Positions 1,571 to 16,862 of a stretch of DNA of 64,000 nucleotides are shown one piece after another. The notes below the pieces were generated by a model. It made no database searches and was not told where the DNA came from. It saw nothing but the letters and a program-made list of their open reading frames with translations. Numbering within the stretch: the stretch's first letter is position 1; each line of letters starts with the position of its first letter. The position numbers were made by a program, and so were the translations under genes. The stretch is from Patescibacteria group bacterium (GTDB lineage Bacteria; Patescibacteriota; Patescibacteriia; UBA1558; GWA2-36-10): contig JAHJQF010000001.1 of assembly GCA_018819405.1 (NCBI GenBank), positions 290,097-354,096 on the forward strand, given 5' to 3'.

Positions 1571-1602
1571 AGTTTTAAAAAATTCTGGGAATGAGGAGTA
1601 TT

Positions 1603-1700: not shown

Positions 1701-1713
1701 AGAAATAAAGTTT

Positions 1714-1753
1714 TTGCTTAATTATTGACTAATTACTATATAAATGATAGGGT
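1714..1753 (+). promoter_or_regulatory. putative promoter for ORF 1820-2146, with CTGGCTAGGCCAG palindrome at 1767-1781
   Basis: TTGCTT/TTGACT -35 candidates and a TATATA -10. Palindrome lies between promoter and RBS AAAGGAGGTG. Confidence 0.4.
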
Positions 1754-1819
1754 ATTTTATTAGTTCTGGCTAGGCCAGAGTAGTTCATTACTCTAAACCT
1801 CTGAAAGGAGGTGAAAAAT

Positions 1820-2146: not shown

Positions 2147-2152
2147 TCATTT

Positions 2153-2191
2153 GCCGCCTGGCCTGAAAACTGGGCGGCTCTTTTATTTTTT
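2153..2191 (+). terminator. rho-independent terminator
   Basis: GCCGCC-TGGCCTGAAAACTG-GGCGGC followed by a T-run. Confidence 0.65.
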
Positions 2192-2207
2192 AAAAAACTT
2201 TATTTCT

Positions 2208-2239
2208 CTTCGCCTCATACGCGGTGATAGATGATGACC
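2208..2239. repeat. Site-B copy 2 (variant CTTCGCCTCATACGCGGTGATAGATGATGACC)
   Basis: Shares the CATACGCGGTG core and the GATGAT/GATGT tail. Confidence 0.65.
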
Positions 2240-2251
2240 AATTCCATGGCG

Positions 2252-3004: not shown

Positions 3005-3024
3005 ATATAATGGAATTGGTTTTC

Positions 3025-3120
3025 ATCTATCAGGCTAGTGTATGCGAAGTTCTGCTTGAATTTTATGCTAAAATAGCACGGAGTGCAAGCATAAAATGAA
3101 AAGTAGAATTTGGGTGGAGC
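3025..3120. repeat. Site-A copy 3
   Basis: Stem ATTTTATGCT pairs with AGCATAAAAT, loop AAAATAGCACGGAGTGCA. Box GAATTTGGGTGGAGC. Forms a ~195-bp composite with Site-B copy 3 that is duplicated at 14767-14962. Confidence 0.8.
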
Positions 3121-3186
3121 AGTGTTAGTTTAGTTTAAACTATATAAAAACAGATAAATATTACTTTACCTGTTCTTTGATATTGC

Positions 3187-3220
3187 TTCGCGAAACCGCA
3201 TACGCGGTGTTGGCTGATGT
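3187..3220. repeat. Site-B copy 3
   Basis: CGCGAAACCGCATACGCGGTGTTGGCTGATGT. Ends 2 nt before the stop of ORF 3222-4025. Confidence 0.8.
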
Positions 3221-3221
3221 T

Positions 3222-4025
3222 TTAATTAAATTTTGTCTTTAATTCTTCCAAAGTTTTTCGCATTAATTCATCTGCTTTTTTGCTTTTTTCTTGTATTTCT
3301 TCAATGGAGTTTGTTTTGTATAAATCTTCGATTTCCTGAACAACTTCTGGTGGCAAATCAACTGACGCATGTTTAAGACCTATGTTTGGCCACTGCGGAG
3401 AATAAAGAAGCCTCAATGCTTCAATAAGTTTGTCTAAAATTAGATCGTGATATATTTTGAGCGCATCAAGATAGTTTTCTCGTTTTAATTCTCGTTCTAG
3501 ACACATGTTACGAAGAGAAACTCGGGCTTCAATATTTTCGATTTGAGCTATAATATTTTTGCGTTCATTTTCTTCGCTTCCTGATTCAGTTTCTAAAATA
3601 CCTTTTTTGTCGAACAATGTGGTTTTACCCTGTGCTTTTAATTTCGTAGAGTCAGAGTATGTTTGCAGAGTAATATCGATAATTAAAAATTTTGATGTGC
3701 CCTGCACATGATAAAGCATTTTGGGCCAATCATATCCAGGTCGTGTATGTTCAAGTTTAAAATCAATATTCGACAATGCGGCTTCTATCGTTTGAATAAC
3801 GCTTTCTATATTTTCGTCTTCTATGACAAGACGTACATCGATATCAGAATATTCGTCCACGGTACCATGTACATCTGCTCCTTCAAGAAAAAAAGCAAAA
3901 ACAGATGAATTGCCTTCAAGAGCGCTATGAAGCTGATCAATAATTTCTTTTCTCTTCTCTATTGTATTTTCTGGTTTTTGTTCGTTTTCTTGCCCTATGT
4001 TTATAGGTAACTCGTTCTTATTCAT
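3222..4025 (-). CDS. nucleotidyltransferase-domain protein
   Basis: G-x(n)-DID motif (LEGADVHGTVDEYSDIDVRLV) typical of the Pol-beta-like NTase fold. Substrate unknown. Confidence 0.5.
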   Translation of the reverse strand: MNKNELPINIGQENEQKPENTIEKRKEIIDQLHSALEGNSSVFAFFLEGADVHGTVDEYSDIDVRLVIEDENIESVIQTIEAALSNIDFKLEHTRPGYDWPKMLYHVQGTSKFLIIDITLQTYSDSTKLKAQGKTTLFDKKGILETESGSEENERKNIIAQIENIEARVSLRNMCLERELKRENYLDALKIYHDLILDKLIEALRLLYSPQWPNIGLKHASVDLPPEVVQEIEDLYKTNSIEEIQEKSKKADELMRKTLEELKTKFN

Positions 4026-4045
4026 ATTTAAAATTTAATTAATAT

Positions 4046-4142
4046 TTCAGCTAACAGACGTGCGTATGCGAAGTCGTGACTGAGCGAATATGATAAAATT
4101 ATTTGAAATCATATTTGCGAAAGAATGATTTGGGTGAGCGAG
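4046..4142. repeat. Site-A copy 4
   Basis: AGCTAACAGACGTGCGTATGCGAAGTC arm. Stem AATATGAT pairs with ATCATATT. Box GATTTGGGTGAGCGAGCCC. Confidence 0.8.
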
Positions 4143-4151
4143 CCCTTTTTA

Positions 4152-4334
4152 TTATTTGTCTTTTTCTTCAGTAGGTGGCACATAAATAACATCTTTTTTA
4201 TTATTAGGATTTATGCCTTCGCTAATTAGGTAATCCTCGTGCTCTTTGTTAAGTTCAGAAACCTCTCTTGTAAAAATACGAAATCCGATATATGCCAGAG
4301 CAGGTACTATAGGTATAAGTAATTTCCAATCCAT
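4152..4334 (-). CDS. small membrane protein (60 aa)
   Basis: N-terminal TM helix. Flanked by Site-A and Site-B. Confidence 0.4.
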   Translation of the reverse strand: MDWKLLIPIVPALAYIGFRIFTREVSELNKEHEDYLISEGINPNNKKDVIYVPPTEEKDK

Positions 4335-4354
4335 ATTTTTTTGTTAATTATTTA

Positions 4355-4391
4355 GCTCGCGAACCGCATACGCGGTGATAGGTGATGTGAT
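4355..4391. repeat. Site-B copy 4
   Basis: AGCTCGCGAACCGCATACGCGGTGATAGGTGATGTGAT. Confidence 0.8.
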
Positions 4392-4409
4392 AAAAATTTT
4401 AATATTTTA

Positions 4410-5219
4410 TTACCAATAACCGTTTTGATTATTTTGCCTAGCATTCCTTTTTTTGAATTCTCTTTCTTCAATAGAATTATACAGCGCAGTTTTTAGGATT
4501 TTAATATCATTATTGTCTAGATAATTTAGAAAATCATCAATGGTCTTTTTTGATACAACATCAATTAGAAAATATTCTGGCTTGTCTTTATATGTGTATT
4601 CAACTTCAATTTCAAAATTATTTTTAATATCTTCATATTTATTACCATCACTAGCCGCTCGTTTAAATTTAGTGAAGTCAGGGACTAATATTAGTGGATA
4701 ATTTACAGTGTTGTAGTTTCCACCTCTTTTATTGGAGTAAAAGAGACTTGCATGCATGACTTCGTTTTTTGCTTTATCCAAGATCTTGTTATCATTTTCT
4801 GTACTAAATTCCTTTACGGCTTCATTATCTTTTAAATAATGGTGCATCTTATTTTCGTAATTTAGGTAAAAATCTTCTTGATTTTGAAGGATGGGATTAT
4901 TTTTTGCTAATTGTTTAGACTTTATTGGATCTTTATCTAAAAACCAAAATACTATATGTGGTTTAATATACTTACACTCTATTATTAATCTTATCGTTAA
5001 TGTCTCTGTAGAATTACTGAACATACCACCGCCAACTTGAATATTTTTTTCAGCAATTATATCAATTTCTCTAGGTTTATTTTCAACAGGATCATTATAG
5101 TGTGGGCTATTTGTCACTGTCCATTCTTTTTCTTCTAATAATTTTGAAATTGTTAAGTGAAAGTCATGTCCACTGTCTCCCATTATTTTTTCTATGATTT
5201 TACCAGTATCTTTTTCCAT
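4410..5219 (-). CDS. hypothetical protein, possible PD-(D/E)xK nuclease fold
   Basis: REIDIIAEK ... IIECKY resembles a D...ExK nuclease motif. Weak. Confidence 0.4.
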   Translation of the reverse strand: MEKDTGKIIEKIMGDSGHDFHLTISKLLEEKEWTVTNSPHYNDPVENKPREIDIIAEKNIQVGGGMFSNSTETLTIRLIIECKYIKPHIVFWFLDKDPIKSKQLAKNNPILQNQEDFYLNYENKMHHYLKDNEAVKEFSTENDNKILDKAKNEVMHASLFYSNKRGGNYNTVNYPLILVPDFTKFKRAASDGNKYEDIKNNFEIEVEYTYKDKPEYFLIDVVSKKTIDDFLNYLDNNDIKILKTALYNSIEEREFKKRNARQNNQNGYW

Positions 5220-5234
5220 AAAATTTTTATTATT

Positions 5235-5333
5235 TCATCTATCAGGACAGGGTATCCGAAGTTCCGAAGCGAATAGCGTGCTAAACTTTCTGCGAAGCAG
5301 AGCACGCAAATGAGCGAGGAATTTGGATGAGCG
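5235..5333. repeat. Site-A copy 5
   Basis: CATCTATCAGGACAGGGTATCCGAAGTTCC arm. Stem GCGTGCT pairs with AGCACGC. Box GAATTTGGATGAGCGGG. Confidence 0.75.
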
Positions 5334-5353
5334 GGTAAGAAAAATTATCCTTA

Positions 5354-5641
5354 TTAATTCCTAACAAATGAGCCTATTAAAGTAAGGATAGCCGTTATTG
5401 CATATAGAATAGAAAAGATTGTTCCGTGGGCATTTTTGATTTTCTTTTTTAAAATCAAATAAGGTATTATTTCAAGTATGAGTGTCATAAAAAGTATGCC
5501 AATAATGCCACCAAGTAATTGGAAGATATCCGAACCATTTATTGCCAGCGAAGCAATAACGGATATAATTAAGCCACTATATGCAAGGATTTTTACATAC
5601 ATAGGTGACTCTTTGAGGTTTAAATTTAGTCCCACTTTCAT
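5354..5641 (-). CDS. small membrane protein (95 aa)
   Basis: Three predicted TM helices. Confidence 0.45.
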   Translation of the reverse strand: MKVGLNLNLKESPMYVKILAYSGLIISVIASLAINGSDIFQLLGGIIGILFMTLILEIIPYLILKKKIKNAHGTIFSILYAITAILTLIGSFVRN

Positions 5642-5680
5642 AATTTTATATTAATTATTTTATTTGTAAAATTTTTCTTA

Positions 5681-5716
5681 CCTGCGAATCGGATACCCGA
5701 TGTTGGGCGATGTACA
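5681..5716. repeat. Site-B copy 5 (covarying variant TCGG-ATAC-CCGA)
   Basis: CCTGCGAATCGGATACCCGATGTTGGGCGATGTACAG. The 4-bp hairpin stem has switched from CCGC/GCGG to TCGG/CCGA while staying complementary. Confidence 0.75.
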
Positions 5717-5725
5717 GATTTTCCT

Positions 5726-6076
5726 TTAAATACCCCATTCTGATATTAGTTTTAAAATGGATGGCCATTGAGAAGTGAAGACCATAGCAATGATCACAAT
5801 TATCACACCTATAATGATTAAGCCGACGGGTCGTTCAAACCACGTTTTCATAGCATTCAAGTCCGACATAACCTTAGATGTTTTTATGTAGAGCGCAGGA
5901 TTGCTTCCAGAATTATTGATATATCCATTTGCTTTTAGAAACTCGTAGTAGATTTTTTGCGCATCACTACTACTTACATTTAAGCCATTTTGAAGGTCTT
6001 GAAAATTAAATCCAGCATCAGGTGTTTTTGAAACCCATTTAAGAATCTTTTTTATTGGAATATTTGCTATTTTCAT
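5726..6076 (-). CDS. hypothetical protein with C-terminal TM helix
   Basis: 116-aa ORF. Confidence 0.45.
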   Translation of the reverse strand: MKIANIPIKKILKWVSKTPDAGFNFQDLQNGLNVSSSDAQKIYYEFLKANGYINNSGSNPALYIKTSKVMSDLNAMKTWFERPVGLIIIGVIIVIIAMVFTSQWPSILKLISEWGI

Positions 6077-6102
6077 AAATTACACAATAAGGAAAATCTG
6101 TA

Positions 6103-6203
6103 TTTCGCCTAACAGACGTGGATTGCCGAAGTTGTGAGAGAGTGAAGTGGCTAAACTTTCGGCGGAGCCGAGCCACGAAACGAACGAGCAATTTGGATGA
6201 GCA
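6103..6203. repeat. Site-A copy 6
   Basis: CGCCTAACAGACGTGGATTGCCGAAGTTG arm. Stem GTGGCT pairs with AGCCAC, loop AAACTTTCGGCGGAGCCG. Box CAATTTGGATGAGC. Confidence 0.75.
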
Positions 6204-6205
6204 AA

Positions 6206-6694
6206 TTAATAAAAATATTTATTTAATACAAATAAACATTCAGGATGAAATTTTCCACCGTTGCTAATCATTTTTTTTATTTCCTCTTTTGTGAAAAATT
6301 GTACTTTTGTAACTTCATTAGGGTCAATATTAAATTCCCCATTATATTTTCCTTTAAAGAAAGTGCTAAAATGTTTGCGCCCATCATCAAGTTCAATGTA
6401 ATGTTTGCCCAATAATTCTAATTCAGTTTTGACACCAATTTCTTCAAAAAGCTCTCTTTTAGCACATCCAAAATAGTCTTCCCCAGAATCTACATGACCA
6501 CCGCCACTACAGTCCCAATAGGAAGGGTAGTTATAACTATTTTCCGAACGTAATTGGAGAAGAATTTCATCTTCATCATTTATAATCATAATATTAGACA
6601 CTCTCAAAATATCTGATTTTTTAGCAGACTTTCTATCGATTATTTTTAGTACTTTATCATTTTTGTCTACTACTTCTACTAGTTCTAATTTCAT
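6206..6694 (-). CDS. Nudix hydrolase
   Basis: Nudix box GGGHVDSGEDYFGCAKRELFEEIGV. Confidence 0.7.
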   Translation of the reverse strand: MKLELVEVVDKNDKVLKIIDRKSAKKSDILRVSNIMIINDEDEILLQLRSENSYNYPSYWDCSGGGHVDSGEDYFGCAKRELFEEIGVKTELELLGKHYIELDDGRKHFSTFFKGKYNGEFNIDPNEVTKVQFFTKEEIKKMISNGGKFHPECLFVLNKYFY

Positions 6695-6735
6695 ATTAAA
6701 TAATTAAGAGTTTTTTAATAAATATTTTTATAAAT

Positions 6736-6795
6736 TTGCGAATCGGCAATCCTGTGTTGGGCGACCCGATAGGGCGGAGCGAAGCGGAGAGTAAG
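6736..6795. repeat. Site-B copy 6 with appended G-rich tail
   Basis: TTGCGAATCGGCAATCCTGTGTTGGGCGAC followed by CCGATAGGGCGGAGCGAAGCGGAGAG. Confidence 0.65.
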
Positions 6796-6802
6796 TATTA
6801 AT

Positions 6803-7333
6803 TTATAATTTTATATTTTCTTTTATATCGCCAAGCGCTTTTTTGTGTTCTTCATATTTATTCTCCCAAAAATCAATATTGCTTAAAGCAAGTTGTTTAA
6901 TTGGCTCTTGTTTTATCCCGTCTTTCATAATGTTTTCTTTATTCCATTTAACTTGATTATTAAGATAATTTTCTGCAGTTAGGGAAAAATCGGAAAAAAA
7001 GTTTTTGAGTTTTGTAATATTTTCATGTTTGAGGAATTTATATACACTTCCGTCTTGTAACATGGAGTCTATTGAATAATTAAGAATTTTAGATAATTGA
7101 TAATATCCAAAATATCTAAATAGTATATCACCATTGACATGATTTCTATATACTTTAAATTCCTCAAGTATTTTTTCGACGTGTGTAATATTGTAGTCTA
7201 TTTCAAACCGGAAATTTTTTTTTCGATTTTTTTCACTAACTTTGTTTTTTATTACATCCAATAAGATATTTATTATACTGCCTGCAATTACACCGGCTAA
7301 TACCCCAAGGAACATATTCCAAAAAGTTTCCAT
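6803..7333 (-). CDS. hypothetical protein with N-terminal TM helix
   Basis: 176-aa ORF. Confidence 0.45.
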   Translation of the reverse strand: METFWNMFLGVLAGVIAGSIINILLDVIKNKVSEKNRKKNFRFEIDYNITHVEKILEEFKVYRNHVNGDILFRYFGYYQLSKILNYSIDSMLQDGSVYKFLKHENITKLKNFFSDFSLTAENYLNNQVKWNKENIMKDGIKQEPIKQLALSNIDFWENKYEEHKKALGDIKENIKL

Positions 7334-7367
7334 ATTTTTTTATTAATAAAATTTAAATTAATACTTA

Positions 7368-7405
7368 TTTCGCCTAACAGACAAGCGTATCTGATGTTTG
7401 TCCGC
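7368..7405. repeat. Site-A copy 7 (truncated; 5' arm only)
   Basis: CGCCTAACAGACAAGCGTATCTGATG present. No stem-loop or 3' box before the stop of ORF 7414-8331. Confidence 0.6.
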
Positions 7406-7413
7406 CACTGAAT

Positions 7414-8331
7414 CTAAGCTGTGTGCTTTTTATATGATTGCTCTATAAGGGTCAATATATAAGAAGTTTCATCTTTAGGAGTTATTACAATTTCATAATC
7501 ACCATTTCCCCAATGGCCAATATTTGATACATCTTTAGCAATGCCCTTTGGATCATTTAGTTGTCCCTTTTTTAGATTTATCCAAATTTTAATCTTTGAT
7601 TTTTTTAGTTCAAAATCTACAAAATTTGTATCAGCAATAAATCCTATATAATATTTTCTTGGTCTTACAGTTATATTGTCAGATATGTTTAAAATTTTTT
7701 CCTTTATTTCTTCATATTTATTTTTTACCTCTTCCGGCAGACTTTCTAAATGTTTTTCTTCCGAGTAAATTTTTATTTCTCTGCTAACTTTTTCTACGAC
7801 ATCACTTTTAGAGCTTATTTTGTTTATTGATTCGCTAGATTCAGGGGATTGTAGTTGATTATATAATATTGTATTATTTTCAAATTTTGATATCTCCCAT
7901 AATTCAATTGGTAGATCCTTAAAATTTATTGCTTGTTTTTGGTATTTTGTAAATTCAGGGGAAATAAAAATTACACGAGATTGAGACCAGTCTACATCTT
8001 CTCGTTTTAAGCTCTGATTTTTACTTTCGTTATATTCAAGTATAAAATCAGCCTTGTTATTGAGTAATAAAGAAAGATAAGCATAACCTTGATCTATTAC
8101 GCTAAAATTTCTATCCTTTTTGTATTCTATTATAACAAAAGCCTTTAGTTCATTATCAAAGGCCAGCGAATCTATTCTCAATCCATTTAGAGCAACTTCT
8201 GACTTGATAAAATCTAAGGAAAAAATTTCATTAAGATTTTTTTCAGTTGTTGACTGTATTTCCCGCTCGTTTTTAAAAGCGGATTCTTTTATTTTTTTGA
8301 GATTTGTATGAGATGTATCAAATATTGGCAT
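7414..8331 (-). CDS. hypothetical protein, possible PD-(D/E)xK-like
   Basis: LRIDSLAFD...VIIEYKKD resembles a D...ExK core. Weak. Confidence 0.4.
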
Positions 8332-8366
8332 AGAAATATATTATTATATTATTAGCGGACAAATAT

Positions 8367-8408
8367 GGGCGAAGCGTAGCGTAGCCAGATACGCGGTGTT
8401 AGACGCTG
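8367..8408. repeat. Site-B copy 7 preceded by G-rich segment GGGCGAAGCGTAGCGTAGCC
   Basis: AGATACGCGGTGTTAGACGCTG. Overlaps the stop codon of ORF 8399-8824. Confidence 0.6.
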
Positions 8409-8824
8409 TTGTCCTCGTTTTCTTTATATGGTTTTTCCAACTTATTCATTTCGTCTATTAATTGTTCTTTACTAAAATTTGATACCTCTTTGTGTTTTCT
8501 TTGAATTAACAAACTAAATATTCCCATAATTAAGAACAACAAAAAAAGCCAATAACATAAAGTTTTATTTGGGTGGTCTTTTTCCAAAATTGTTAGCCCT
8601 CCTATTAGAGCGGATAAGGCTATACCAAAAAAAGCCGGCCCTAGAACTTGCCAAAGGCTTGTTGGTGATTTTATTTTATCTGCCATGTTTTTTAATCTAT
8701 TCCAATCAGGCCAAAACATAGGAAAGCCGCGCCTTGGTTCAGGTGATTTTATCTGACAAGATTCAGAAAATTCTAAATCGCTATCATTATTATTTTTTAT
8801 CTGGCTCTTCGGCATTCTTTTCAA
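8399..8824 (-). CDS. membrane protein
   Basis: 141 aa with two TM helices. Confidence 0.45.
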   Translation of the reverse strand: MKRMPKSQIKNNNDSDLEFSESCQIKSPEPRRGFPMFWPDWNRLKNMADKIKSPTSLWQVLGPAFFGIALSALIGGLTILEKDHPNKTLCYWLFLLFLIMGIFSLLIQRKHKEVSNFSKEQLIDEMNKLEKPYKENEDNSV

Positions 8825-9071
8825 TTAAATCAAGTTTTAAGGCATTAAAAAATAGGGTATTACCACAATTTCGGCACGTTGCATAGACTACAGGAGTTAT
8901 GTTTGATTTTCCTCCTATAACCATGTTGCCTCCATGGAATTCTCTTAACTCAAATATTATATCTGATATATCCCATTCATTGTGTTTGCAAACAGAACAG
9001 GCCTTTGGCGCTGGCCAAGATTCTTGCAGTTTTTCCAACAATTTTTTTTGTTGTTCTTTGTTTAATTTCAT
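8790..9071 (-). CDS. zinc-ribbon small protein
   Basis: CSVC...CRNC four-cysteine motif. Overlaps the downstream ORF by 35 nt (co-module). Confidence 0.45.
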   Translation of the reverse strand: MKLNKEQQKKLLEKLQESWPAPKACSVCKHNEWDISDIIFELREFHGGNMVIGGKSNITPVVYATCRNCGNTLFFNALKLDLIEKNAEEPDKK

Positions 9072-9100
9072 ATTTATATTTTATCATTAGAGGACAATTG

Positions 9101-9219
9101 CGTCTAACAGACAAGCGTATCTGAAGTTTTCTGCGAAACGAAGCTGTTATAATTATTGCGCGAAGTGGAGCGTAGCGCAAGAGCAGCGGAGTTGAGTAGA
9201 AAATTTGGGTGAAGTAGGA
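9101..9219. repeat. Site-A copy 8
   Basis: CGTCTAACAGACAAGCGTATCTGAAGTT arm. Stem TTGCGC pairs with GCGCAA. Box AAAATTTGGGTGAAGTAGG. Confidence 0.7.
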
Positions 9220-9243
9220 GAGAAAAAGCCTATTTTAAAGATA

Positions 9244-9272
9244 TTGACATATTATAGATATTCTGGTATTTT
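9244..9272 (+). promoter_or_regulatory. sigma70-like promoter (TTGACA-17-TATTTT) for ORF 9326-9517
   Basis: TTGACA at 9244-9249. RBS GAGGAGG lies before ATG 9326. Confidence 0.5.
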
Positions 9273-9325
9273 ATATTGTTCGTTCCCTGCATTATTCACC
9301 ACCAACCTAGTGAGGAGGACAGCTC

Positions 9326-9517
9326 ATGTCAGTATCAGAGGAGAGGAAATTGCTCGAGAAGATCATCCGAGCGAAGGTTCGCTTGGAAGACATGAAGGTC
9401 GAGCACAAGGAGGCTTGCCCTGCCGAAGATCCATTGATGGCAGGACAGTGCACCTGTGGTGCCGATACCCTGAACGGCCAGATCAACGCCGTTCTCCGCG
9501 AACTCTCTCTCGACTAG
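9326..9517 (+). CDS. small high-GC protein (63 aa), opposite strand
   Basis: Strong RBS, ~58% GC, CxC...C motif. Terminator at 9541-9571. Confidence 0.5.
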   Translation: MSVSEERKLLEKIIRAKVRLEDMKVEHKEACPAEDPLMAGQCTCGADTLNGQINAVLRELSLD

Positions 9518-9540
9518 TGGGACAGACTCAGTCCTGTCTC

Positions 9541-9571
9541 GGCGCTCTGCAACTGCGGGGCGCTTTTTTTT
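9541..9571 (+). terminator. rho-independent terminator
   Basis: GGCGCTCTGCAACTGCGGGGCGC followed by T9. Confidence 0.6.
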
Positions 9572-9585
9572 ATTTTTCTCTCCTA

Positions 9586-9616
9586 CTTCACCAGATACGC
9601 GGTGTTAGCTGATGTA
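9586..9616. repeat. Site-B copy 8
   Basis: CTTCACCAGATACGCGGTGTTAGCTGATGTA. Confidence 0.7.
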
Positions 9617-9663
9617 TTCCTTTTCTAGAATTTACTTTTTAAATATTTAAATTTCTTTTTTCA

Positions 9664-9710
9664 ATTTGGGCGAAGGGCAGAGGGGATTAAGGGGTGAATG
9701 CCCGAGCCCA
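9664..9710 (+). repeat. G-rich element copy 1 (GGGCGAAGGGCAGAGGGGATTAAGGGGTGAATGCCCGAGCCC)
   Basis: Four G-tracts with loops of 7 nt or fewer, a canonical G-quadruplex motif, on the plus strand. Starts with the AATTTGGGCGA box like the Site-A 3' end. Confidence 0.6.
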
Positions 9711-9716
9711 AAAAAG

Positions 9717-12290
9717 TTATCTATTTTCAGAAAAACGTATATCTCTTGCATGCAACATTGTTTTTAGGCTTTCAGTAAATTTTAAGGATTCTTTTAGTGC
9801 TTCCTTCTTTGTATCTCCTTTTGGAATTGGAATTAAGAAGTATTCATTCCAAGCGTCTGTTTTTAATTCAGGTTGACTGGCTGTCTGAGCTAAATAATAT
9901 CCTTGTTTTTTGCATAAATCGCTTCTTAACGAATACCATAACAGCATACTTTCTTCTAAATTTTTTGTTTTAAATACCCAAAAGCCAGATGTACAAATAA
10001 AATTTTCCATTTCTTTTGGTACCAGCATAACAGTTCCTCGTGAACTAATGTTTATCGCCATTAGAACATCATTTTCTTGAATTTTGTATTGTCCACGCGA
10101 TGGTAGGTTTTCAAAATTGTCAGTTAAGTAGTTTATTGGCAAGCCATAGTCAGTTACGTCACTAATTTCAATATAATGAAATTGTTTGTTTTTAAATTCA
10201 TTTTTTTGCAGGCCATTAATTTTAGCTCTTTTTTTTACGTCTATACCTTTTTTAATTTCAATTTTATCTTTGTCGGCGAGCTCTAAAATTTTATTCCAGG
10301 TATTTTTTAACTCAGGCGCATAGAAAAAAGCATCTAATCTATCAATTATTAATTCTTCTGGTGGAGTAATCCAAATTTGTTCCGGACATTCTAAGTTTTC
10401 ATTTTTGTTTTGATTTTCTTTAATTGTTGGTTTCAGTATCCCTGTTCGTTTCCATTCTAAATAAGATACTAAAATATCAGTTAAATTATTACGCTCTAAG
10501 GTGTCTCTGAGGGAGTTGTCGTGTCCAATATTATTACTTATAGACATAAAAATGTGACTTTGTCGTTCATCATCATTTTGTTTTTTCCGTAGATGTAAAA
10601 TTGACGTTTTTATATTTGCCTTTGCCTTGAAGAATGCGTTAAATGGTAAAGAATGAACTCCTAAAATTATAAATTTATCTACTATCCAGTTTCGAACATT
10701 TTGTTGATTTTTCCCGTTTAATACTGTGTCGTCAAGAACCAGTAATATTTCGCCACCTGATTTCAGTAATTTCCAATATCGATCCAAAAATAAAATATTT
10801 GATTTTGCACTTTTCATCCCGTCTGCAATATGGCGCTGGTCTAATATATCTGTTTCATCTTCATTATTTCTGTCATACACCATGCTAAACGGAGGGTTTG
10901 TTAGTACCAAGTCAAAGCTATTTTCCATGATTTTTGTTTGCATTGCTTCAATTTCAGATTTTCTTTCATCTTTCATGTCTTCTGCAATTTTTGGAAAATC
11001 GTCCAATCCATCGCCGTGAAATATGTGACTACCACCATCGCCGTGTAAATACATATTAATTCTAGCAATTCTTGCAACACGTTCATTTGCTTCAATGCCA
11101 AATAATTGTTCATTACAGATCTTGTTTTTAATTATTTCTTTTTCTGTATTACTAAAGCGTGTATCATCTCTCAATCCAGATAATAAATAAGCCATAACTT
11201 CAATGAGAAAACCAGCTGTTCCTGCACATGCATCCATAACTTTTGGCGGATTTTTAATATCCACATTACATAAGGCAATTCGGGTCATAAAGTCAACAAC
11301 TGGTCGGGGTGTAAAATATTGCCCCAATGCTCGTCCTCTTACGGCAGCGTTTAAGAACACTTCAAACATTCGTCCGTTAAGGTCTTCATCAATTGAGCTA
11401 AGATTAATTTTTTCAAATATTTTTATTAGATCTTGGCAGGTGGAGGCACTCAATTTAAAAGTTTCATTTTCTTCAAAAATTCTACGTTTTTTGTCTCTAT
11501 GTATTGCAGCTTCTAAATCGTCTCGTAATTTATTAAAAAGAATGTCTCGCACAGGATGTTTTGATGTTGATTTTTGAGCATCTAACCACTCGCTGGTAAG
11601 TGGAATTTTATATGTTGGGATGTCTTCATTATTTTGTCCTCTTTTTTTATCCTCATTAATCTTAATGAATATAAATTTACAAAATTCAAAAAAAGCATCA
11701 GTAGGGCTAAGTTTTTCCCTCTTCCAAATTAAATCATGCGTTTGCTGAAAGATTTTATTCAATTCGTCAGGCGAAACGATTTCAAATTTTAATCCATCAC
11801 CGTGCACTACTTCATCAGCAGTTTTATACTTGATATAACTTCTTAGATTGGTATAGGCTGGTGAACCACTGGCAAAATCTGATAACTGTAATGTTACGAT
11901 TGGTGTACTGCTGTCCCATTTGAATAACGAAGTTATAAAACCATTACTGATTAATAACCACTTGACCTTTTCTTTGTCTAATTTATCTCGGTTATAACTA
12001 AGAGCATAGCTTGCAGCTTGTCCCCATGCTTCGTTTATGGATTTATTTGGATCCTTAGCCTCTACTACTACTTTTGCATTTCCATTGCTACCAAGTAATA
12101 AAAAATCTATTTCAATTTTTATTTTTTTGGATCCATCATTAGCCATCAAATTAAGGAGTCTTTTTTTGGGGATAACAGATTGATCTGTATAGCCGAGATC
12201 ATTAAATAATTTTGCCAAGAGCCTAGTTTCTACCTCGGCTTCGGTTTTTAAGTCTTTTAAATTAAGTTGAAATAGAGTACTTTGGCTCAT
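9717..12290 (-). CDS. Type IIG-like restriction-modification enzyme / N6-adenine DNA methyltransferase with HsdR-N-type N-terminal domain
   Basis: Motif I DACAGTAGFL, motif IV LTNPPF, an HsdM-like helical domain, an N-terminal Type-I-R N-terminal-like domain and a long C-terminal extension. 857 aa. Confidence 0.7.
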   Translation of the reverse strand: MSQSTLFQLNLKDLKTEAEVETRLLAKLFNDLGYTDQSVIPKKRLLNLMANDGSKKIKIEIDFLLLGSNGNAKVVVEAKDPNKSINEAWGQAASYALSYNRDKLDKEKVKWLLISNGFITSLFKWDSSTPIVTLQLSDFASGSPAYTNLRSYIKYKTADEVVHGDGLKFEIVSPDELNKIFQQTHDLIWKREKLSPTDAFFEFCKFIFIKINEDKKRGQNNEDIPTYKIPLTSEWLDAQKSTSKHPVRDILFNKLRDDLEAAIHRDKKRRIFEENETFKLSASTCQDLIKIFEKINLSSIDEDLNGRMFEVFLNAAVRGRALGQYFTPRPVVDFMTRIALCNVDIKNPPKVMDACAGTAGFLIEVMAYLLSGLRDDTRFSNTEKEIIKNKICNEQLFGIEANERVARIARINMYLHGDGGSHIFHGDGLDDFPKIAEDMKDERKSEIEAMQTKIMENSFDLVLTNPPFSMVYDRNNEDETDILDQRHIADGMKSAKSNILFLDRYWKLLKSGGEILLVLDDTVLNGKNQQNVRNWIVDKFIILGVHSLPFNAFFKAKANIKTSILHLRKKQNDDERQSHIFMSISNNIGHDNSLRDTLERNNLTDILVSYLEWKRTGILKPTIKENQNKNENLECPEQIWITPPEELIIDRLDAFFYAPELKNTWNKILELADKDKIEIKKGIDVKKRAKINGLQKNEFKNKQFHYIEISDVTDYGLPINYLTDNFENLPSRGQYKIQENDVLMAINISSRGTVMLVPKEMENFICTSGFWVFKTKNLEESMLLWYSLRSDLCKKQGYYLAQTASQPELKTDAWNEYFLIPIPKGDTKKEALKESLKFTESLKTMLHARDIRFSENR

Positions 12291-12379
12291 ATTGGTTTAA
12301 TTTAGTTTTTATACTATTTATAATACAAGTATAATTCATTTAAAATAAAAACACAATTCTGAGATATAAATAAATCGTT

Positions 12380-12435
12380 TCCGAAGCGTAGCGGAGGAAA
12401 CATCTGCTCCTGCCGACAGGCAGGTTCCCCTCCTA
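12380..12435. repeat. GC-rich nested hairpin (GGAGG...CCTGCCGACAGGCAGG...CCTCC)
   Basis: Perfect inner hairpin CCTGCC-GACA-GGCAGG nested in a GGAGG/CCTCC outer stem. Begins with the CGAAGCGTAGCGG segment shared with 8367-8386. Confidence 0.5.
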
Positions 12436-12514
12436 AAAAAAGAAAAAGAAATTTGTAATTTTTAAAAATAATTGTTTGTTAAATGCCGAAAAAGAAAAGG
12501 AATATTTCAGCTAA

Positions 12515-12603
12515 CAGACGTGCGTATCTGAAGTTCCGAAGCGAGTGGCGTGGTAAAATTGCGCGGAGCGCACCACGCAAACGAGCGAGGAATTTGGGTG
12601 AGT
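12515..12603. repeat. Site-A copy 9
   Basis: AGCTAACAGACGTGCGTATCTGAAGTTCC arm. Stem GCGTGGT pairs with ACCACGC, loop AAAATTGCGCGGAGCGC. Box GAATTTGGGTGAGTAAG. Confidence 0.8.
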
Positions 12604-12606
12604 AAG

Positions 12607-13065
12607 TTAAATAAAATCTTTATACTGCTCTTCAATAGGAGGATTGGAAAAATAAGCCAATACACTATTACCAGATTCCATTAATTCTATCATTTCAAAA
12701 CCGTCTCTAGGTATTAATTTAAAATTATTTTTGCCCAAATTTTCTTTTTTAAAATTTTCGTAATTTTTCACTGTAAAATCTGCATCGCCCCTTTCTTTTT
12801 TATTAGGATCAAATTCTCTAATTTTTAATACTCTAATAGTTCTTCCTATAGGCTCATTTAATATGAATATAGGGCCACTGTATGTGTCTTTCAATTTTTC
12901 ACCAAATTTTTTTACTTCTTCAATCAATTCCTTATATTCTTCTTCAGTTTGGGCAAAAATACAAGCCCAAGTCGCTATAGCACCATGTTCTTTGGTATAT
13001 TTATCTTTAAGAGCAATAGCTCTCATTAGTATTTCTTGAACGATAATTTTTTTTAAATCTACCAT
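12607..13065 (-). CDS. hypothetical protein
   Basis: 152-aa ORF. Confidence 0.45.
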   Translation of the reverse strand: MVDLKKIIVQEILMRAIALKDKYTKEHGAIATWACIFAQTEEEYKELIEEVKKFGEKLKDTYSGPIFILNEPIGRTIRVLKIREFDPNKKERGDADFTVKNYENFKKENLGKNNFKLIPRDGFEMIELMESGNSVLAYFSNPPIEEQYKDFI

Positions 13066-13087
13066 AGTTTTATAAAGATTTTATTTA

Positions 13088-13124
13088 ACTTACGAACCAG
13101 ATACGCGGTGATAGGTGATGTACA
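13088..13124. repeat. Site-B copy 9
   Basis: ACTTACGAACCAGATACGCGGTGATAGGTGATGTAC. Confidence 0.75.
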
Positions 13125-13182
13125 TTTTTTCTTAAACTTTAAAGAGTTTTATTTCTTAAAAGTAGAATTTGATTTTTATCAA

Positions 13183-13240
13183 TTTTGGCGAGGGCGCAGA
13201 GGGGGTTAGGGGGTGAATGCGCCCGAGCCAAAGGCGCTTT
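13183..13240 (+). repeat. G-rich element copy 2 (GGCGAGGGCGCAGAGGGGGTTAGGGGGTGAATGCGCCCGAGCC)
   Basis: Homologous to 9664-9710. Preceded by an AAGTAGAATTTGA box remnant. Confidence 0.6.
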
Positions 13241-13255
13241 GTCTAATTTATAATT

Positions 13256-14077
13256 TTATTTTGCTTCTACACTTTTTATTATTTGTTTAGTTAACTCATT
13301 AAAGATTACAAAAAACATTTGAGAGTCCTGTGGTTCTAAAAAGATTTTTAATCTTAATTGTTTTTCGGGGTGTATTAGATTTCTATATTCCATTATAGTA
13401 GTGCCTATGTCTTTTGCTGGTTTTCTCACCCAGCCCATAGAGAATGATACATCAATAAAATTACTTAGTGTCCACTCCGATAAATTACGAGGTTTTTTAG
13501 TTTTTGGGTCTATTGGGGTTGTTTTTTGTTTAAAAATAGTACTTTTATCTGTTAATTTATTTATGCGCGCAAGAAAAAATGCTTCCAGTAATCCACCCAT
13601 CATTACTGTGGCAGCAAGAGGTGCTACATTGATGCAGTTTTGGATTTCATCGAAACGACTATATATGATTTGTTGCATGTAGTCATCTTGTACAAGATTT
13701 TCTAATGAAGTAATATTTTTATTTTCTACTTTTGGTTTTTGGTTTGTTATTGTTTCGGATTGCAATTTTATTAGTTTACCTCTTAATCCCTTAATAAGGG
13801 ATAGGTATTTATTTTTACTAGTAGCTGAATGCGACCATTCATTTATTAGTAGATAGTCATCATTAATTTTAGTATATAGTTCAGAATCTACGCATAAAGG
13901 AGAAAAAATATTTTTATATTTTTCGAACCACGCTAAAGAAATTGTTCTTATAAACTCACGTGTAGATTTTGAACGTATTTGATCTCCGCTTTCTTTTCGC
14001 AATATTTTTTTAAGACGTTCAGCTTCATCTAGTAAGGTAATTAAAATATTTGAAATATTGCTGTCGTTAATTGCCAT
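13256..14077 (-). CDS. hypothetical protein
   Basis: 273-aa ORF. Confidence 0.45.
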   Translation of the reverse strand: MAINDSNISNILITLLDEAERLKKILRKESGDQIRSKSTREFIRTISLAWFEKYKNIFSPLCVDSELYTKINDDYLLINEWSHSATSKNKYLSLIKGLRGKLIKLQSETITNQKPKVENKNITSLENLVQDDYMQQIIYSRFDEIQNCINVAPLAATVMMGGLLEAFFLARINKLTDKSTIFKQKTTPIDPKTKKPRNLSEWTLSNFIDVSFSMGWVRKPAKDIGTTIMEYRNLIHPEKQLRLKIFLEPQDSQMFFVIFNELTKQIIKSVEAK

Positions 14078-14088
14078 AGCTAGAGTGA

Positions 14089-14643
14089 TTATTTTTTCTT
14101 TTTAGTATTTCTTACAATTTTTTTTCTTTTCTTTGATGTAGTTGCAGTACTTTCTGTATTTGGAAGAACCATTGCAACAAGATTTTCTCCAACACTGTTT
14201 AATCTGTATGCACCTCTTGAAATATTGTCTAAATACCCAGCTTTAGTTGCATTTACTAAAGTTTGATCTGGACGTTTTATCCTAGTTCTCCCCACAAGTC
14301 TTGTGGCCTCTATTAAATCATTCATTGATATGGTGTCCTTTTTTTCACTTGCTTCAAATTGATAATAGTAGGCAACAGCGGCAGCAAAATGATTATCGGA
14401 AGATGGTTTTTTTCCATCAATAAAAGTTTTTATATCTCTAGATGTTGTATGTTGAGTCGATGCATTTTGAGTTATGTTATTAAGGATATCAGGCTTTATC
14501 TCTTGTGTAATTCCGGGTATATTAATATTTAATTTTTCGCATGCCCATCGCATGGTTTGTAGTTGTTCGTCTTCTGGAAGTGTTTGTATTAAGTTGACGA
14601 TTTCACGCAATACGTCATAGGAATCTTTTTTTTGATCACTCAT
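14089..14643 (-). CDS. hypothetical protein with lysine-rich C-terminal tail
   Basis: 184 aa ending KKRKKIVRNTKKKK. Co-modular with 13256-14077 (11-nt gap). Confidence 0.45.
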   Translation of the reverse strand: MSDQKKDSYDVLREIVNLIQTLPEDEQLQTMRWACEKLNINIPGITQEIKPDILNNITQNASTQHTTSRDIKTFIDGKKPSSDNHFAAAVAYYYQFEASEKKDTISMNDLIEATRLVGRTRIKRPDQTLVNATKAGYLDNISRGAYRLNSVGENLVAMVLPNTESTATTSKKRKKIVRNTKKKK

Positions 14644-14766
14644 ATTGTTTAGTTGTTAGTTAATATTATATTTATTTATTTCAACCCCCTAACTAAAATA
14701 GATAAAAATCAAATTTGTATAATTTAAATTTTAGCTTATCTTAGCCAAAAAGGAAAAATGTATGTC

Positions 14767-14868
14767 ATCTATCAGACGTGCGTATGCGAAGTTCTACTTG
14801 AATTTTATGCTAAAATAGCACGGAGTGCAAGCATAAAATGAAAAGTAGAATTTGGGTGGAGCTGTTTT
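14767..14868. repeat. Site-A copy 10 (duplicate of copy 3)
   Basis: Identical stem-loop ATTTTATGCT-AAAATAGCACGGAGTGCA-AGCATAAAAT. Confidence 0.8.
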
Positions 14869-14929
14869 AGTTTAGTCTAAACTATATAAAAACAGATAAA
14901 TTTTACTTTACCTGTTCTTAAATAATGCT

Positions 14930-14962
14930 TCGCGAAACCGTATACGTAGTGTTGTCTGATGT
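14930..14962. repeat. Site-B copy 10 (degenerate: CGCGAAACCGTATACGTAGTGTTGTCTGATGTCG)
   Basis: Position-equivalent to Site-B copy 3 inside the duplicated composite. Confidence 0.65.
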
Positions 14963-15015
14963 CGAATTTTCTTAGACATTTACTATTATTTAGGGGAATT
15001 TTTGGGTTTTTAAGG

Positions 15016-15044
15016 TTGACAAGATATAGTGTTTATGATATATT
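15016..15044 (+). promoter_or_regulatory. sigma70-like promoter (TTGACA-17-TATATT)
   Basis: Paralogous copy of the promoter at 18-46. Confidence 0.6.
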
Positions 15045-15113
15045 ATTTTGTTAACTAAAATCGGTCAATTCAGGCCATTGGTTGTGTTCCTCAAACTTGG
15101 AAGGAGTAATTTC

Positions 15114-15548
15114 ATGACTACCACCGTTGTTTCCCAGGGTAGCTTGTTCTGGAACAAGCTCGGCAAGTGGCAGATGCTGGCAGTTCTGTTAACTTTGGTG
15201 GTTTTCTTCGTTGCCCTAGGAATGGGTAATAAGGAGACTGCCGGCACCATCTCTGCTCTCACGCTTGCTGCCGTCACTCTGACTGTTCTCACTGTCGCCG
15301 CCCTCGTTCTCGCTGTCCCTTCCGCCGTTCCCTTCGTATTCCTTTTCGCTGCTGCTACTGCCAGCATCGCCTTCGCTTTCGTTAAAGGTGTTGCCATTAT
15401 TCCCGGCATCGCCTTCGCCGTCGCTGAAGGAATTGCTGTCACCCTTGCCGTCGCTGAGGTGAAGAAGTACGGCATCAGGAAGAGGATTGTTTGGTTTTCC
15501 TTCGCGGCGGAGTTTGCGTGTATCGTCCTTCCCATGTCACTGGCTTAG
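15114..15548 (+). CDS. small polytopic membrane protein, high-GC, paralog B
   Basis: N-terminus MTTTVVSQGSLFWNKLGKWQ matches paralog A's MSTAVVSQARLFWRKLGWWQ. C-terminus KKYGIRKRIVWFSFAAEF matches RQYGIKKRVVWLSSTVEF. Alanine- and valine-rich core. Confidence 0.6.
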   Translation: MTTTVVSQGSLFWNKLGKWQMLAVLLTLVVFFVALGMGNKETAGTISALTLAAVTLTVLTVAALVLAVPSAVPFVFLFAAATASIAFAFVKGVAIIPGIAFAVAEGIAVTLAVAEVKKYGIRKRIVWFSFAAEFACIVLPMSLA

Positions 15549-15563
15549 GCCAGCACCCTCCAC

Positions 15564-15597
15564 GAGACCCGGGTTAGAATAGGGTCTCTTTTTTTCC
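15564..15597 (+). terminator. rho-independent terminator
   Basis: GAGACCC-GGGTTAGAATAG-GGTCTC followed by T9. Confidence 0.7.
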
Positions 15598-15664
15598 AAA
15601 AAATTCCCAAACAAAAAACAATCTCTAAAAGATTGTTTTATTATATGAATAGAAAATTCGATTT

Positions 15665-15703
15665 CATACAACAGACCGCCATATGCGAAGTTGCGCAGGC
15701 CGC
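15665..15703. repeat. Site-A copy 11 (truncated variant CATACAACAGACCGCCATATGCGAAGTTGCGCAGGCCGCC)
   Basis: Arm present, no 3' box. Confidence 0.55.
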
Positions 15704-15722
15704 CTACCTTTAACTTAGGCAC

Positions 15723-15968
15723 TTAGTTAATTATAATAGCAATGAATTGTAAACAAAATCCTATACTATATAGAGTGAAGGCTAATAATCCAACCATTTT
15801 ATCTTTTAGATGTTTAATTTGTGTATAATTTCCTTTATCGTCCATTTTTATAATATAATCATCATTAACATTTCTAGTAATGTTAAGATAGGAAATTAAC
15901 AATATTAAAGAAGCTCCAGTATTTATTATTAAGCCAATTAGGTTTAGTATATTTGAAGAATTAGTCAT
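15723..15968 (-). CDS. small membrane protein (81 aa)
   Basis: Two TM helices. Confidence 0.45.
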   Translation of the reverse strand: MTNSSNILNLIGLIINTGASLILLISYLNITRNVNDDYIIKMDDKGNYTQIKHLKDKMVGLLAFTLYSIGFCLQFIAIIIN

Positions 15969-16026
15969 ATTTTATTAGTTAGTTAAAGAATTAGGCCAAG
16001 CAATTTTGGTGAAGCGCCTGACAAGG

Positions 16027-16063
16027 CGCTGAACCGCATATGGGGTGTTAGCTGATGTAAATA
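16027..16063. repeat. Site-B copy 11
   Basis: GCGCTGAACCGCATATGGGGTGTTAGCTGATGTAAAT. Confidence 0.7.
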
Positions 16064-16098
16064 AATTCAACGAGCATAGCGAGTTGTTTAAATGAATT

Positions 16099-16710
16099 TT
16101 ATTTTTTTGGTTTTATTGACCCTAAAACAATATAATAAAAAATTCTTTGTATAAATACGAATATTAGGATTATTATAATATTAGTCAGTAAAAAAGATTT
16201 TAAGAAATTTTCAGAAGAATATACTGGAGTTATATCGAATAGATGGTTGGTGTAACTTATTGGTGAGTTAATAGATTTTTCCTGGTCAATTCTATTTTGC
16301 CACTTTTGATCATCATTACTTGCATCAAATAATGGCTCATCATTTTTTATGTCAAAGTATCTTTGTAAATCGTAGATACTAATGTTTGCTGTAAATTTAG
16401 AATTACATTTTTTTAATATATTTTCTATGGCATATTCATTACTTGGTTCCGAATAAAAAGTTTTATAATTGTAGTTTTTTAAACTATTTTCTAGGCCATA
16501 ATATATTGACAGTTCATTTAATTTATAAGTTACTTTACCAGTGCTTCTATTGCATGTCAGAGTAGATTTTTCTAAGTCTAATTTATTATATTTATTCTGA
16601 AAGACTTCATAATTACCGATGCTAATTGTTATGACAAAAACAATAATAAATATTACTTTTATAAGTCTATACCAAGCCTTATTATTTAGGTTTAAAATGG
16701 TTTTTTCCAT
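16099..16710 (-). CDS. membrane protein (N- and C-terminal TM helices)
   Basis: 203-aa ORF. First module next to the recombinase. Confidence 0.5.
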   Translation of the reverse strand: MEKTILNLNNKAWYRLIKVIFIIVFVITISIGNYEVFQNKYNKLDLEKSTLTCNRSTGKVTYKLNELSIYYGLENSLKNYNYKTFYSEPSNEYAIENILKKCNSKFTANISIYDLQRYFDIKNDEPLFDASNDDQKWQNRIDQEKSINSPISYTNHLFDITPVYSSENFLKSFLLTNIIIILIFVFIQRIFYYIVLGSIKPKK

Positions 16711-16774
16711 ATTTATTAAGGTTAAAAAATAAAATTCATTTAAATATTCGGCGTTAGCCGAATAAAGTTATTTA

Positions 16775-16795
16775 TTTCAGCTAACAGTGTGTTTG
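16775..16795. repeat. Site-A half-site next to the recombinase gene (ATTTCAGCTAACAGTGTG)
   Basis: Only the conserved TTTCAGCTAACAG core is present. Lies 70 nt upstream of the recombinase ATG. IR ATTCGGC-GTTA-GCCGAAT at 16747-16764 and a TTGACA at 16831 are in the same intergenic region. Confidence 0.5.
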
Positions 16796-16862
16796 TGCAC
16801 CTATTGACATCGTAGCTCAAATTAGCCAATATGTAAATATTAAGCATTAATCACAAAGTATT

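Follow-up and report, generated by a model that had tools for sequence, protein, structure and literature searches.

The subject of this analysis is the gene for an 857-residue protein, together with the array of short paired sites in which it lies. Both are found in a 64,000-nt stretch of DNA from a Patescibacteria group bacterium (contig JAHJQF010000001.1), here called the window. The gene is an intact, uninterrupted open reading frame (ORF) with an ATG start, on the minus strand at 9717..12290. An identical protein is listed by NCBI as MBU1202714.1, "N-6 DNA methylase [Patescibacteria group bacterium]", on a contig of 1,035,872 bp, which puts the window in a genome of about 1 Mb from the candidate phyla radiation. 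The array occupies the left quarter of the window (1-16860) and continues past its left end; the gene for a tyrosine recombinase follows it on the right. A reading of the DNA letters alone (the sequence-only reading) had described the gene product as a restriction-modification (RM) enzyme carried as a single module. The ORF, motifs and flanking features that it listed are all present in the sequence, with the LTNPPF motif at residues 463-468.

Domains and family of the 857-residue protein

Compared with Pfam at full length, the protein matches N6_Mtase at 1.9e-39 (residues 302-616) and Eco57I at 7e-12, and it matches HSDR_N_2 and HSDR_N at 20 bits, below their cut-off of 25. Scanning residues 1-194 alone gives 26.6 bits for HSDR_N and 26.1 bits for HSDR_N_2, both above the cut-off, and scanning residues 631-857 alone gives a match to Methylase_S, the Type I specificity domain, in one stretch only (22.7 bits against a cut-off of 22). 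No helicase or ATPase family matches the protein in the Pfam scan. From N-terminus to C-terminus the domains are a PD-(D/E)xK nuclease, a helical connector, a gamma-class N6-adenine methyltransferase with its motif I (DACAGTAGF, residues 353-361) and motif IV (NPPF, residues 465-468), and a single recognition domain of the Type I kind followed by a helix (Table 1). The comparisons of profile, sequence and fold thereby support the arrangement that had been claimed for the chain, in which an HsdR-N-type nuclease is joined to an N6-adenine methyltransferase and a recognition domain. The absence of a nuclease domain on profile search had been set beforehand as the result that would speak for a solitary methyltransferase; the domain is found, within residues 1-194.

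The top match by sequence in the PDB is the RM subunit of BsaXI (8w0p), at 1.4e-31 over residues 8-577, a span that takes in nuclease, connector and methyltransferase. In the BsaXI nuclease domain, alanine mutants of E73, D90, E105 and K107 abolish cleavage (PMC11997821). Read residue by residue, the alignment places D62, E77 and K79 opposite BsaXI D90, E105 and K107, and its chain numbering agrees with the BsaXI paper for all of the acidic and basic residues mutated there. At the C-terminus there is a match (3e-5) to the first recognition domain of the HsdS chains 5ybb_D and 3okg_A.

An AlphaFold2 model was made from 21 homologues, with a mean predicted local distance difference test score (pLDDT) of 75 and a predicted template modelling score of 0.67. 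Foldseek of this model against the PDB again gives BsaXI as the best match (2.8e-19), followed by CamA, the Type IIG enzymes BpuSI and DrdV, and HsdM proteins. Past the recognition domain the model ends with two helices (825-846 and 848-856), which we read, from the model, as the counterpart of the conserved-region helix of HsdS.

More than 1,874 database proteins match the query at E <= 1e-10. For the best 120, identity to it over the full length is 60-69% and length is 842-882 residues, mostly 855-865; they are spread over many phyla, with examples in Flavobacterium and Bacteroidales. All 120 are full-length, and the query is itself full-length relative to more than 100 proteins of 855-865 residues. 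In databases these 120 carry no other names than "N-6 DNA methylase" and "type I restriction enzyme M protein". In the 21-member alignment D62, E77, K79 and NPPF are invariant and motif I is largely so. Mean identity to the query is 65% for the nuclease, 66% for the connector, 72% for the methyltransferase, 60% for the recognition domain and 34% for the terminal helix. The nuclease is therefore constrained much as the methyltransferase is, which argues against its being vestigial.

It is worth adding that seven unrelated genomic contexts of homologues were searched for a conserved partner gene, and none was found. These contexts include an integrase-Rep island in Flavobacterium, AbiC-like and HigB-like genes in one metagenome-assembled genome (MAG) and housekeeping genes in another. 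As judged from these seven contexts, with no conserved neighbour in any, the enzyme is a stand-alone system. A fuzzy search for the A and B sites around the seven homologues found none, except at the locus that is the window sequence itself (L001).

Class and proposed mode of action of the enzyme

We consider it likely that the gene encodes a self-contained, ATP-independent, single-chain RM enzyme of the Type IIG class, with restriction, modification and specificity functions (R, M and S) in one polypeptide, and that it is carried on an integron-like cassette. Endonuclease and methyltransferase are in one chain, both by Pfam and in the BsaXI RM alignment, which spans the two. The PD-(D/E)xK residues are intact, with only BsaXI E73 left unmatched, and the S-adenosylmethionine motif I and motif IV are invariant or nearly so. 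Every feature of Type IIG enzymes that can be tested at the level of sequence is thus found in the protein, and cleavage outside the recognition site is predicted. The label "Type IIG-like" of the sequence-only reading is a safe one for the class; the nearest solved relative is, however, a Type IIB enzyme, and IIB-like behaviour is possible. The two recognition domains of Type IIB are not found here, each chain having one Methylase_S-like domain and one terminal helix, and there is no S gene in the cassette or beside the homologues examined. The enzyme, a relative of Type IIB BsaXI with half a specificity module, adds one uncharacterised member to a kind already known.

Comparison with the solved and modelled relatives makes this position clearer. 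The RM subunit of BsaXI (PDB 8w0p/8w2p) has the same order of nuclease, helical connector and gamma methyltransferase, and its D, E and K residues align, but identity is only ~21%, the two recognition domains of BsaXI are on a separate S subunit, and BsaXI also has a C-terminal 'paddle'. The 857-residue protein has a single recognition domain and helix fused to the chain, no paddle and no S gene. The single-chain Type IIB enzymes AloI, PpiI, TstI, CjeI and HaeIV likewise hold nuclease, methyltransferase and Type-I-like specificity in one chain (PMC1892151; PMC11997821), though most of the single-chain Type IIB enzymes modelled in PMC11997821 have the full TRD1-CR1-TRD2-CR2 arrangement of target recognition domains (TRD) and conserved regions (CR), as against the half module found here. 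BpuSI, MmeI and DrdV, of Type IIG, are similar in being single R-M-S chains whose N-terminal part is a PD-(D/E)xK nuclease and which include a gamma methyltransferase; they differ in that recognition is not by a domain of the Type I HsdS kind, and identity is 11-14%. In Type I HsdM2-HsdS complexes the methyltransferase core and recognition domain are matched by HsdM and HsdS, but the 857-residue protein has no HsdR motor, and its nuclease is fused directly to the methyltransferase, so that cleavage would be expected near the site and without translocation.

In the mode of action that we propose, the recognition domain would read a short sequence, and the methyltransferase would flip out and methylate an adenine in host DNA using S-adenosylmethionine. 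The tethered nuclease would cut unmethylated incoming DNA at a fixed short distance from the site. The enzyme would most likely act as a homodimer that mimics the (RM)2S assembly of BsaXI. A homodimer is favoured because one recognition domain with one helix corresponds to half of a Type I specificity subunit, and half-size HsdS proteins are known to dimerise and read symmetric sites. This would imply that the enzyme reads a symmetric bipartite site, possibly with cuts on both sides as in Type IIB. A monomeric mode with an asymmetric site is kept open by the fold match of the model to CamA. Specificity domains in such enzymes are usually variable, and the well-conserved recognition domain suggests, from the alignment, that the close family shares one specificity.

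Several observations weigh against this account of the enzyme. The Pfam scores of the nuclease are marginal, both at full length and alone. The fourth catalytic residue of BsaXI, E73, aligns with K42, although the invariant E17 or E21 of the first helix may, judging from the alignment, stand in for it. Confidence in the model is low at residues 1-30 and 136-160. The dimer and the two-sided cutting are predictions, and CamA, a monomeric methyltransferase with one such recognition domain, is also a good fold match. A recognition domain with 60% identity is unusually conserved. No consensus sigma-70 promoter was found upstream of the gene on the minus strand, so that expression too is predicted, and no activity, recognition site or methylome is on record for any member of the family.

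Some of these points could also indicate that the protein serves in practice as a solitary (orphan) adenine methyltransferase, whose nuclease-like domain is vestigial or serves only to bind DNA. The public annotation is only 'N-6 DNA methylase', the HSDR_N scores are marginal, BsaXI E73 has no aligned acidic partner, and the M and recognition parts have a strong fold match in CamA, an orphan enzyme with a single recognition domain. Nevertheless we regard this as distinctly unlikely: D62, E77 and K79, which lie opposite residues proven to be catalytic, do not vary in the family, the nuclease comes close to the methyltransferase in conservation, unlike what a relic in decay would do, and 120 out of 120 of the best homologues have kept their full length.

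It is far less probable still that the protein is a subunit of a multi-gene system (Type I, Type ISP, MADS or BREX) with its partner genes elsewhere. The top NCBIfam match is to MADS MAD2, then to HsdM, with PglX weak, and PADLOC returns many MTase_I models and mad2. All of the NCBIfam scores, however, fall far below the curated cut-offs. MAD2 was excluded at 181 bits against 720, with only the methyltransferase covered and no MADS partners in the window, and BREX PglX at 24 and 20 bits against 500 and 900. Type I and Type ISP were excluded by an HsdM score of 71 bits against 243 and by the lack of a motor, there being neither a helicase/ATPase domain in the protein nor a motor gene in the cassette. 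The gene is alone in its cassette, and the seven homologue neighbourhoods have no partner gene in common.

The site array, the putative enzyme cassette and the recombinase

The A and B sites are confined to 1-16.8 kb of the window, where they lie in one orientation and in strict alternation, an arrangement far beyond chance. There are 11 A sites and a half-site; the B sites also number 11, if a degenerate one near 6737 is counted. The consensus is ATTTCGCCTAACAGACAAGCGTATGCGAAGT for Site A and GAACCGCATACGCGGTGTTAGCTGATGT for Site B. Two boxes make up each site, an R box on the outside (…CTAAC / GTTAG…) and an L box on the inside (GCGTATGCG / CGCATACGC); Site B is the inverted complement of Site A, except that its boxes are separated by a shorter spacer.

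The L boxes covary between each A and the next B, as in the pairs GGGTATCCG/CGGATACCC, CCATATGCG/CGCATATGG and GGATTGCCG/CGGCAATCC. The R boxes covary between each B and the next A, that is, across the gene-bearing interval. Box pairs were counted over the window and the related loci with such sites. For the L boxes, A(i) with the next B gives 264 Watson-Crick and 4 G·T pairs in a total of 270, as against 180 and 9 in 225 for the control pairing; for the R boxes, B(i) with the next A gives 154 and 16 in 175 (170/175 Watson-Crick or G·T), as against 136 and 23 in 210. At the level of sequence, this covariation is the signature of integron attC sites, in which the L box stays with its own site and the R box is split by recombination, its halves going along with the cassette. 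It is striking that the non-Watson-Crick pairs between partners, written on the plus strand, are G·T in 20 cases and A·C in 2, a bias that duplex sites would not show, and we therefore conclude that the plus strand has been selected to fold. For the cassette ORFs the plus strand is the bottom strand, and in integrons it is likewise the bottom strand that folds. One compact A..B unit, at 14756-14965, folds as a long hairpin (z = -4.7). Two readings made by eye were dropped: Site B as a hammerhead ribozyme, where the motifs are out of register, and Site A as a hairpin in itself, where there is no covariation inside a single site.

The enzyme gene lies in one such interval. It had been claimed to be carried as one site-bounded module, and it is indeed flanked by Site B and a structured motif (the G-element) on one side and by the GC-rich hairpins and Site A on the other. 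The R box of Site B at 9588 is a perfect match to that of Site A at 12504, and the pairing of GTTAGCTGA at 9604 with TCAGCTAAC at 12507 extends into a longer inverted repeat specific to this cassette. From the covariation, the G·T strand bias and the attI half-site, we infer that 9108-12514 is the mobile unit; in minus-strand order it holds the two GC hairpins, the gene, the G-element and an attC-like site of ~500 nt. The neighbouring tyrosine recombinase could probably excise and reinsert the gene cassette through folded, single-stranded attC-like sites.

Table 1. Positions of the enzyme domains, the cassette elements and the array features in the window
Feature	Position	Strand	Basis or remark
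N-terminal PD-(D/E)xK nuclease domain, residues 1-135	11886..12290	minus	HSDR_N models, BsaXI alignment, invariant columns
Gamma-class N6-adenine methyltransferase, residues 301-616	10443..11390	minus	Pfam, PDB matches to HsdM and BsaXI, Foldseek
One Type-I-like target recognition domain (~640-823) and C-terminal helix (825-856)	9720..10373	minus	Methylase_S, HsdS matches, model
Putative cassette	9108..12514	minus	3,407 nt, if crossover is at G|TT as in integrons
attC-like site after the gene (minus-strand sense)	9097..9615		Site A 9097-9127 pairs with Site B 9588-9615
Site B: L' box (CCAGATACGCGG) and R' box GTTAGCT (9604-9610) of attC-like site	9588..9615	plus	
Left arm of cassette-specific extended inverted repeat	9604..9626	plus	pairs with 12493-12515 at 21/23 positions
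G-element, structured motif just 3' of the gene stop codon	9666..9711		
Two GC-rich hairpins, GTTTCC..GGAAAC and CCTGCC..GGCAGG	12377..12424		between Site A and the gene upstream region
Right arm of extended inverted repeat, ending in R'' box AGCTAAC (12509-12515)	12493..12515	plus	
Site A: R'' box and L'' box (GCGTATCTG) of the next attC-like site	12504..12534	plus	
ORF-bearing attC-like sites	648-1149, 5232-5713, 6102-6764, 7367-8409, 9097-9615, 12504-13121, 15661-16058		0.4-1 kb
attI-like half-site (ATTTCAGCTAAC), R box only	16774..16785	plus	recombinase-proximal array end, 77 nt upstream of recombinase start
XerA/IntI-like tyrosine recombinase, 288 aa	16863..17729	plus	divergently transcribed from the array

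The G-element occurs twice only, the other copy being at 13184-13240, and each copy directly follows the stop codon of a cassette operon. Both stems differ between the copies by compensatory changes, the loop GAGGGGRTTARGGGGTGAA is conserved, and the start of the element, AATTTGGGYGAR, is common to a motif inside most of the attC-like sites. The pair of GC-rich hairpins may be a transcriptional insulator. Rfam at gathering thresholds finds two tRNAs only in the whole window, with no match for the G-element, the hairpins or the sites.

Canonical attC sites are ~55-150 nt long. The attC-like sites of the window measure 201-1043 nt, and in this respect they do not resemble those of integrons. Seven of the 11 contain an ORF, and in six of these seven the ORF is flanked by an extra stem of 8-23 bp. 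The ORFs so enclosed include one NUDIX hydrolase and a PDC-S18 defence candidate, and the site at 12504-13121 holds an ORF of 152 residues. To our knowledge there is no precedent for genes inside attC sites. In the attC-like site that follows the enzyme gene, an inner stem of 19 bp (9209-9227 with 9573-9591) encloses a plus-strand mini-gene (9326-9517) for a Cys-containing peptide of 63 residues, with its own promoter-like site and terminator. Other plus-strand mini-genes within the minus-strand array are found at 15048-15548 and, as its paralogue, at 82-531, this pair encoding an Ala/Val-rich membrane protein present in two copies. The mini-genes have a strong promoter-like site, a Shine-Dalgarno sequence, an intrinsic terminator and a GC content far above the surroundings.

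The recombinase aligns with IntIA of Vibrio cholerae (VchIntIA) at residues 6-169 and 239-317, as far as the SPL motif at the C-terminus, and has 28 residues where IntIA has 69, in the region of the additional domain specific to integrons. It fails the integron-integrase model TIGR02249 (204 against 265 bits) and narrowly passes the XerA model (229 against 220). Two features of integrons are found at this locus, an attI-like half-site beside a divergent recombinase with mostly co-oriented ORFs (18 out of 21 in the array on the minus strand) and imperfect palindromes of the attC type with the covariation expected of exchanged R boxes and kept L boxes, and one, the additional domain of IntI, is lacking.

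Recombinases that are 64-84% identical occur in other Patescibacteria MAGs, with alternating A and B arrays wherever the upstream sequence is available; the loci with such arrays are L009, L012, L013, L015, L017, L019 and L031, the last having a recombinase 51% identical. Several of the related genomes are labelled Gammaproteobacteria, probably from mis-binning. At the related loci the A..B spans are 98-1373 nt, half of them 221 nt or less. When all the array proteins were compared by tblastn with 31 related recombinase loci, the enzyme was not found a second time in any related array; the NUDIX cassettes and two others are the only ones that recur. Cassette content differs between the arrays, as is expected for a platform that captures genes.

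What kind of system this is can be stated only tentatively. It is possible, with the balance falling a little short of even, that the array represents an undescribed, perhaps ancestral, form of integron in Patescibacteria, with a recombinase of Xer size, gene-bearing attC-like sites of more than 1 kb, and the RM enzyme as a cassette of 3.4 kb. No description of integrons or of such arrays in Patescibacteria was found in the literature searched. Defence genes in integron cassettes have already been documented, and the resemblance is to a defence gene carried as a site-bounded cassette beside a tyrosine recombinase (bioRxiv 10.1101/2024.07.02.601719). The present array differs in its recombinase, in attC-like sites that reach 0.3-1.4 kb and often contain ORFs, in the size of the enzyme cassette, which is large for an integron, and in its host, a Patescibacteria genome. 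Two points tell against an integron: in a survey of tyrosine recombinases the integron insertion is held to be essential for integron function (PMC8138268), and the recombinase here is without it; and integron-type mobility would have to act on an attC-like site of about 500 nt.

The same recombinase would suit a different system, in which the modules are double-stranded Xer-type units like the pdif modules of Acinetobacter plasmids, with A..B and B..A intervals, each lying between inversely oriented recombinase sites, independently moved by a Xer-like enzyme. This we consider unlikely. Both kinds of interval can carry genes, and locus L015 has 'empty' B..A units of 124 nt beside gene-bearing A..B units. 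The recombinase is of Xer size and has its top score with the XerA model, and the survey cited above classes the candidate-phyla enzymes as Xer-related (PMC8138268). On the other hand, the G·T to A·C ratio points to a folded single strand and not to a duplex, compact A..B units of 98-221 nt are common in the related arrays and fold as attC-like hairpins, and a half-site beside a divergent, dedicated recombinase is the layout of an integron. In addition, positive GC skew is kept on the right flank, and the right edge of the array is not at the dif position of a replication terminus; a dif or terminus explanation for the array was judged unlikely from the GC skew.

Other cassettes, the rest of the window and implications

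The sequence-only reading had called the array a defence/accessory island. An accessory array with some defence cargo is what is found: only four of its ~21 ORFs have defence-related matches in PADLOC, namely the RM enzyme, a protein matching PDC-S18 at 8e-131, and two NUDIX proteins with moderate matches to PDC-S07. The remaining array ORFs have no defence matches in PADLOC. Integron-like cassette array is therefore a better term for it than defence island. The PDC-S18 protein (7414-8331, 305 residues) has a nuclease-like D..EYK motif and a C-terminal DUF5655, and is encoded inside an attC-like site.

Two further gene pairs had been suggested as defence or toxin pairs. The first, at 14643..13256, is a conserved operon of two genes, for 184 and 273 residues, but no toxin or defence function could be demonstrated for it. 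The 273-residue family has at least 365 members; in two distant genomes the homologue is preceded by a homologue of the 184-residue protein (53% and 42% identity), and the pair is kept at the loci L040/L041, beside a serine recombinase, and L042. The 273-residue protein has an all-alpha model (pLDDT 87) and an invariant Y-R-N-x-x-H-P motif, and Foldseek of this model against the PDB gives nothing below E = 0.6. A HEPN/Csm6-like reading of it was rejected: the matches are weak only, and R-N-x-x-H is one residue shorter than the HEPN Rx4-6H. The second pair, at 8399-9071, has no matches at all in PHROGs, Pfam, NCBIfam or PADLOC; by eye, it consists of a zinc-ribbon-like protein of 93 residues and a membrane protein with two helices.

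Outside the array, a sugar-modification operon lies at 45117-50298 on the minus strand, with a GT2 glycosyltransferase, a DegT aminotransferase, a metalloenzyme, a GFO/IDH oxidoreductase and a methyltransferase. Its GC content is 50-52% in a genome of ~35% GC, and horizontal acquisition is probable. Between 44559 and 59088, upstream of plus-strand genes, a repeat of ~57 nt with an extended -10-like TGATATAAT is present five times, each time ending at an ATG. Matching terminator-like repeats are found at 52908, 60770 and 62573.

The enzyme is a candidate from a large uncharacterised family of single-chain RM proteins of ~855 residues, annotated merely as "N-6 DNA methylase". Characterising one member would put a name to more than 1,800 proteins and may provide a compact new specificity. 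The enzyme itself is an ordinary member of a large known class, and the array that carries it is the more unusual and matters more. It means that Patescibacteria, with their ultra-small genomes, maintain a cassette array that is linked to a recombinase and has at least some defence genes among its cargo. Standard integron finders require the additional domain of IntI, and since the recombinase here is without it, such arrays would probably be missed. Should the array function in the way its sequence patterns point to, it has a bearing on the evolution of integron recombination from Xer-type recombinases. If it is indeed an undescribed form of integron, the RM enzyme would be a complete defence system captured as one cassette.

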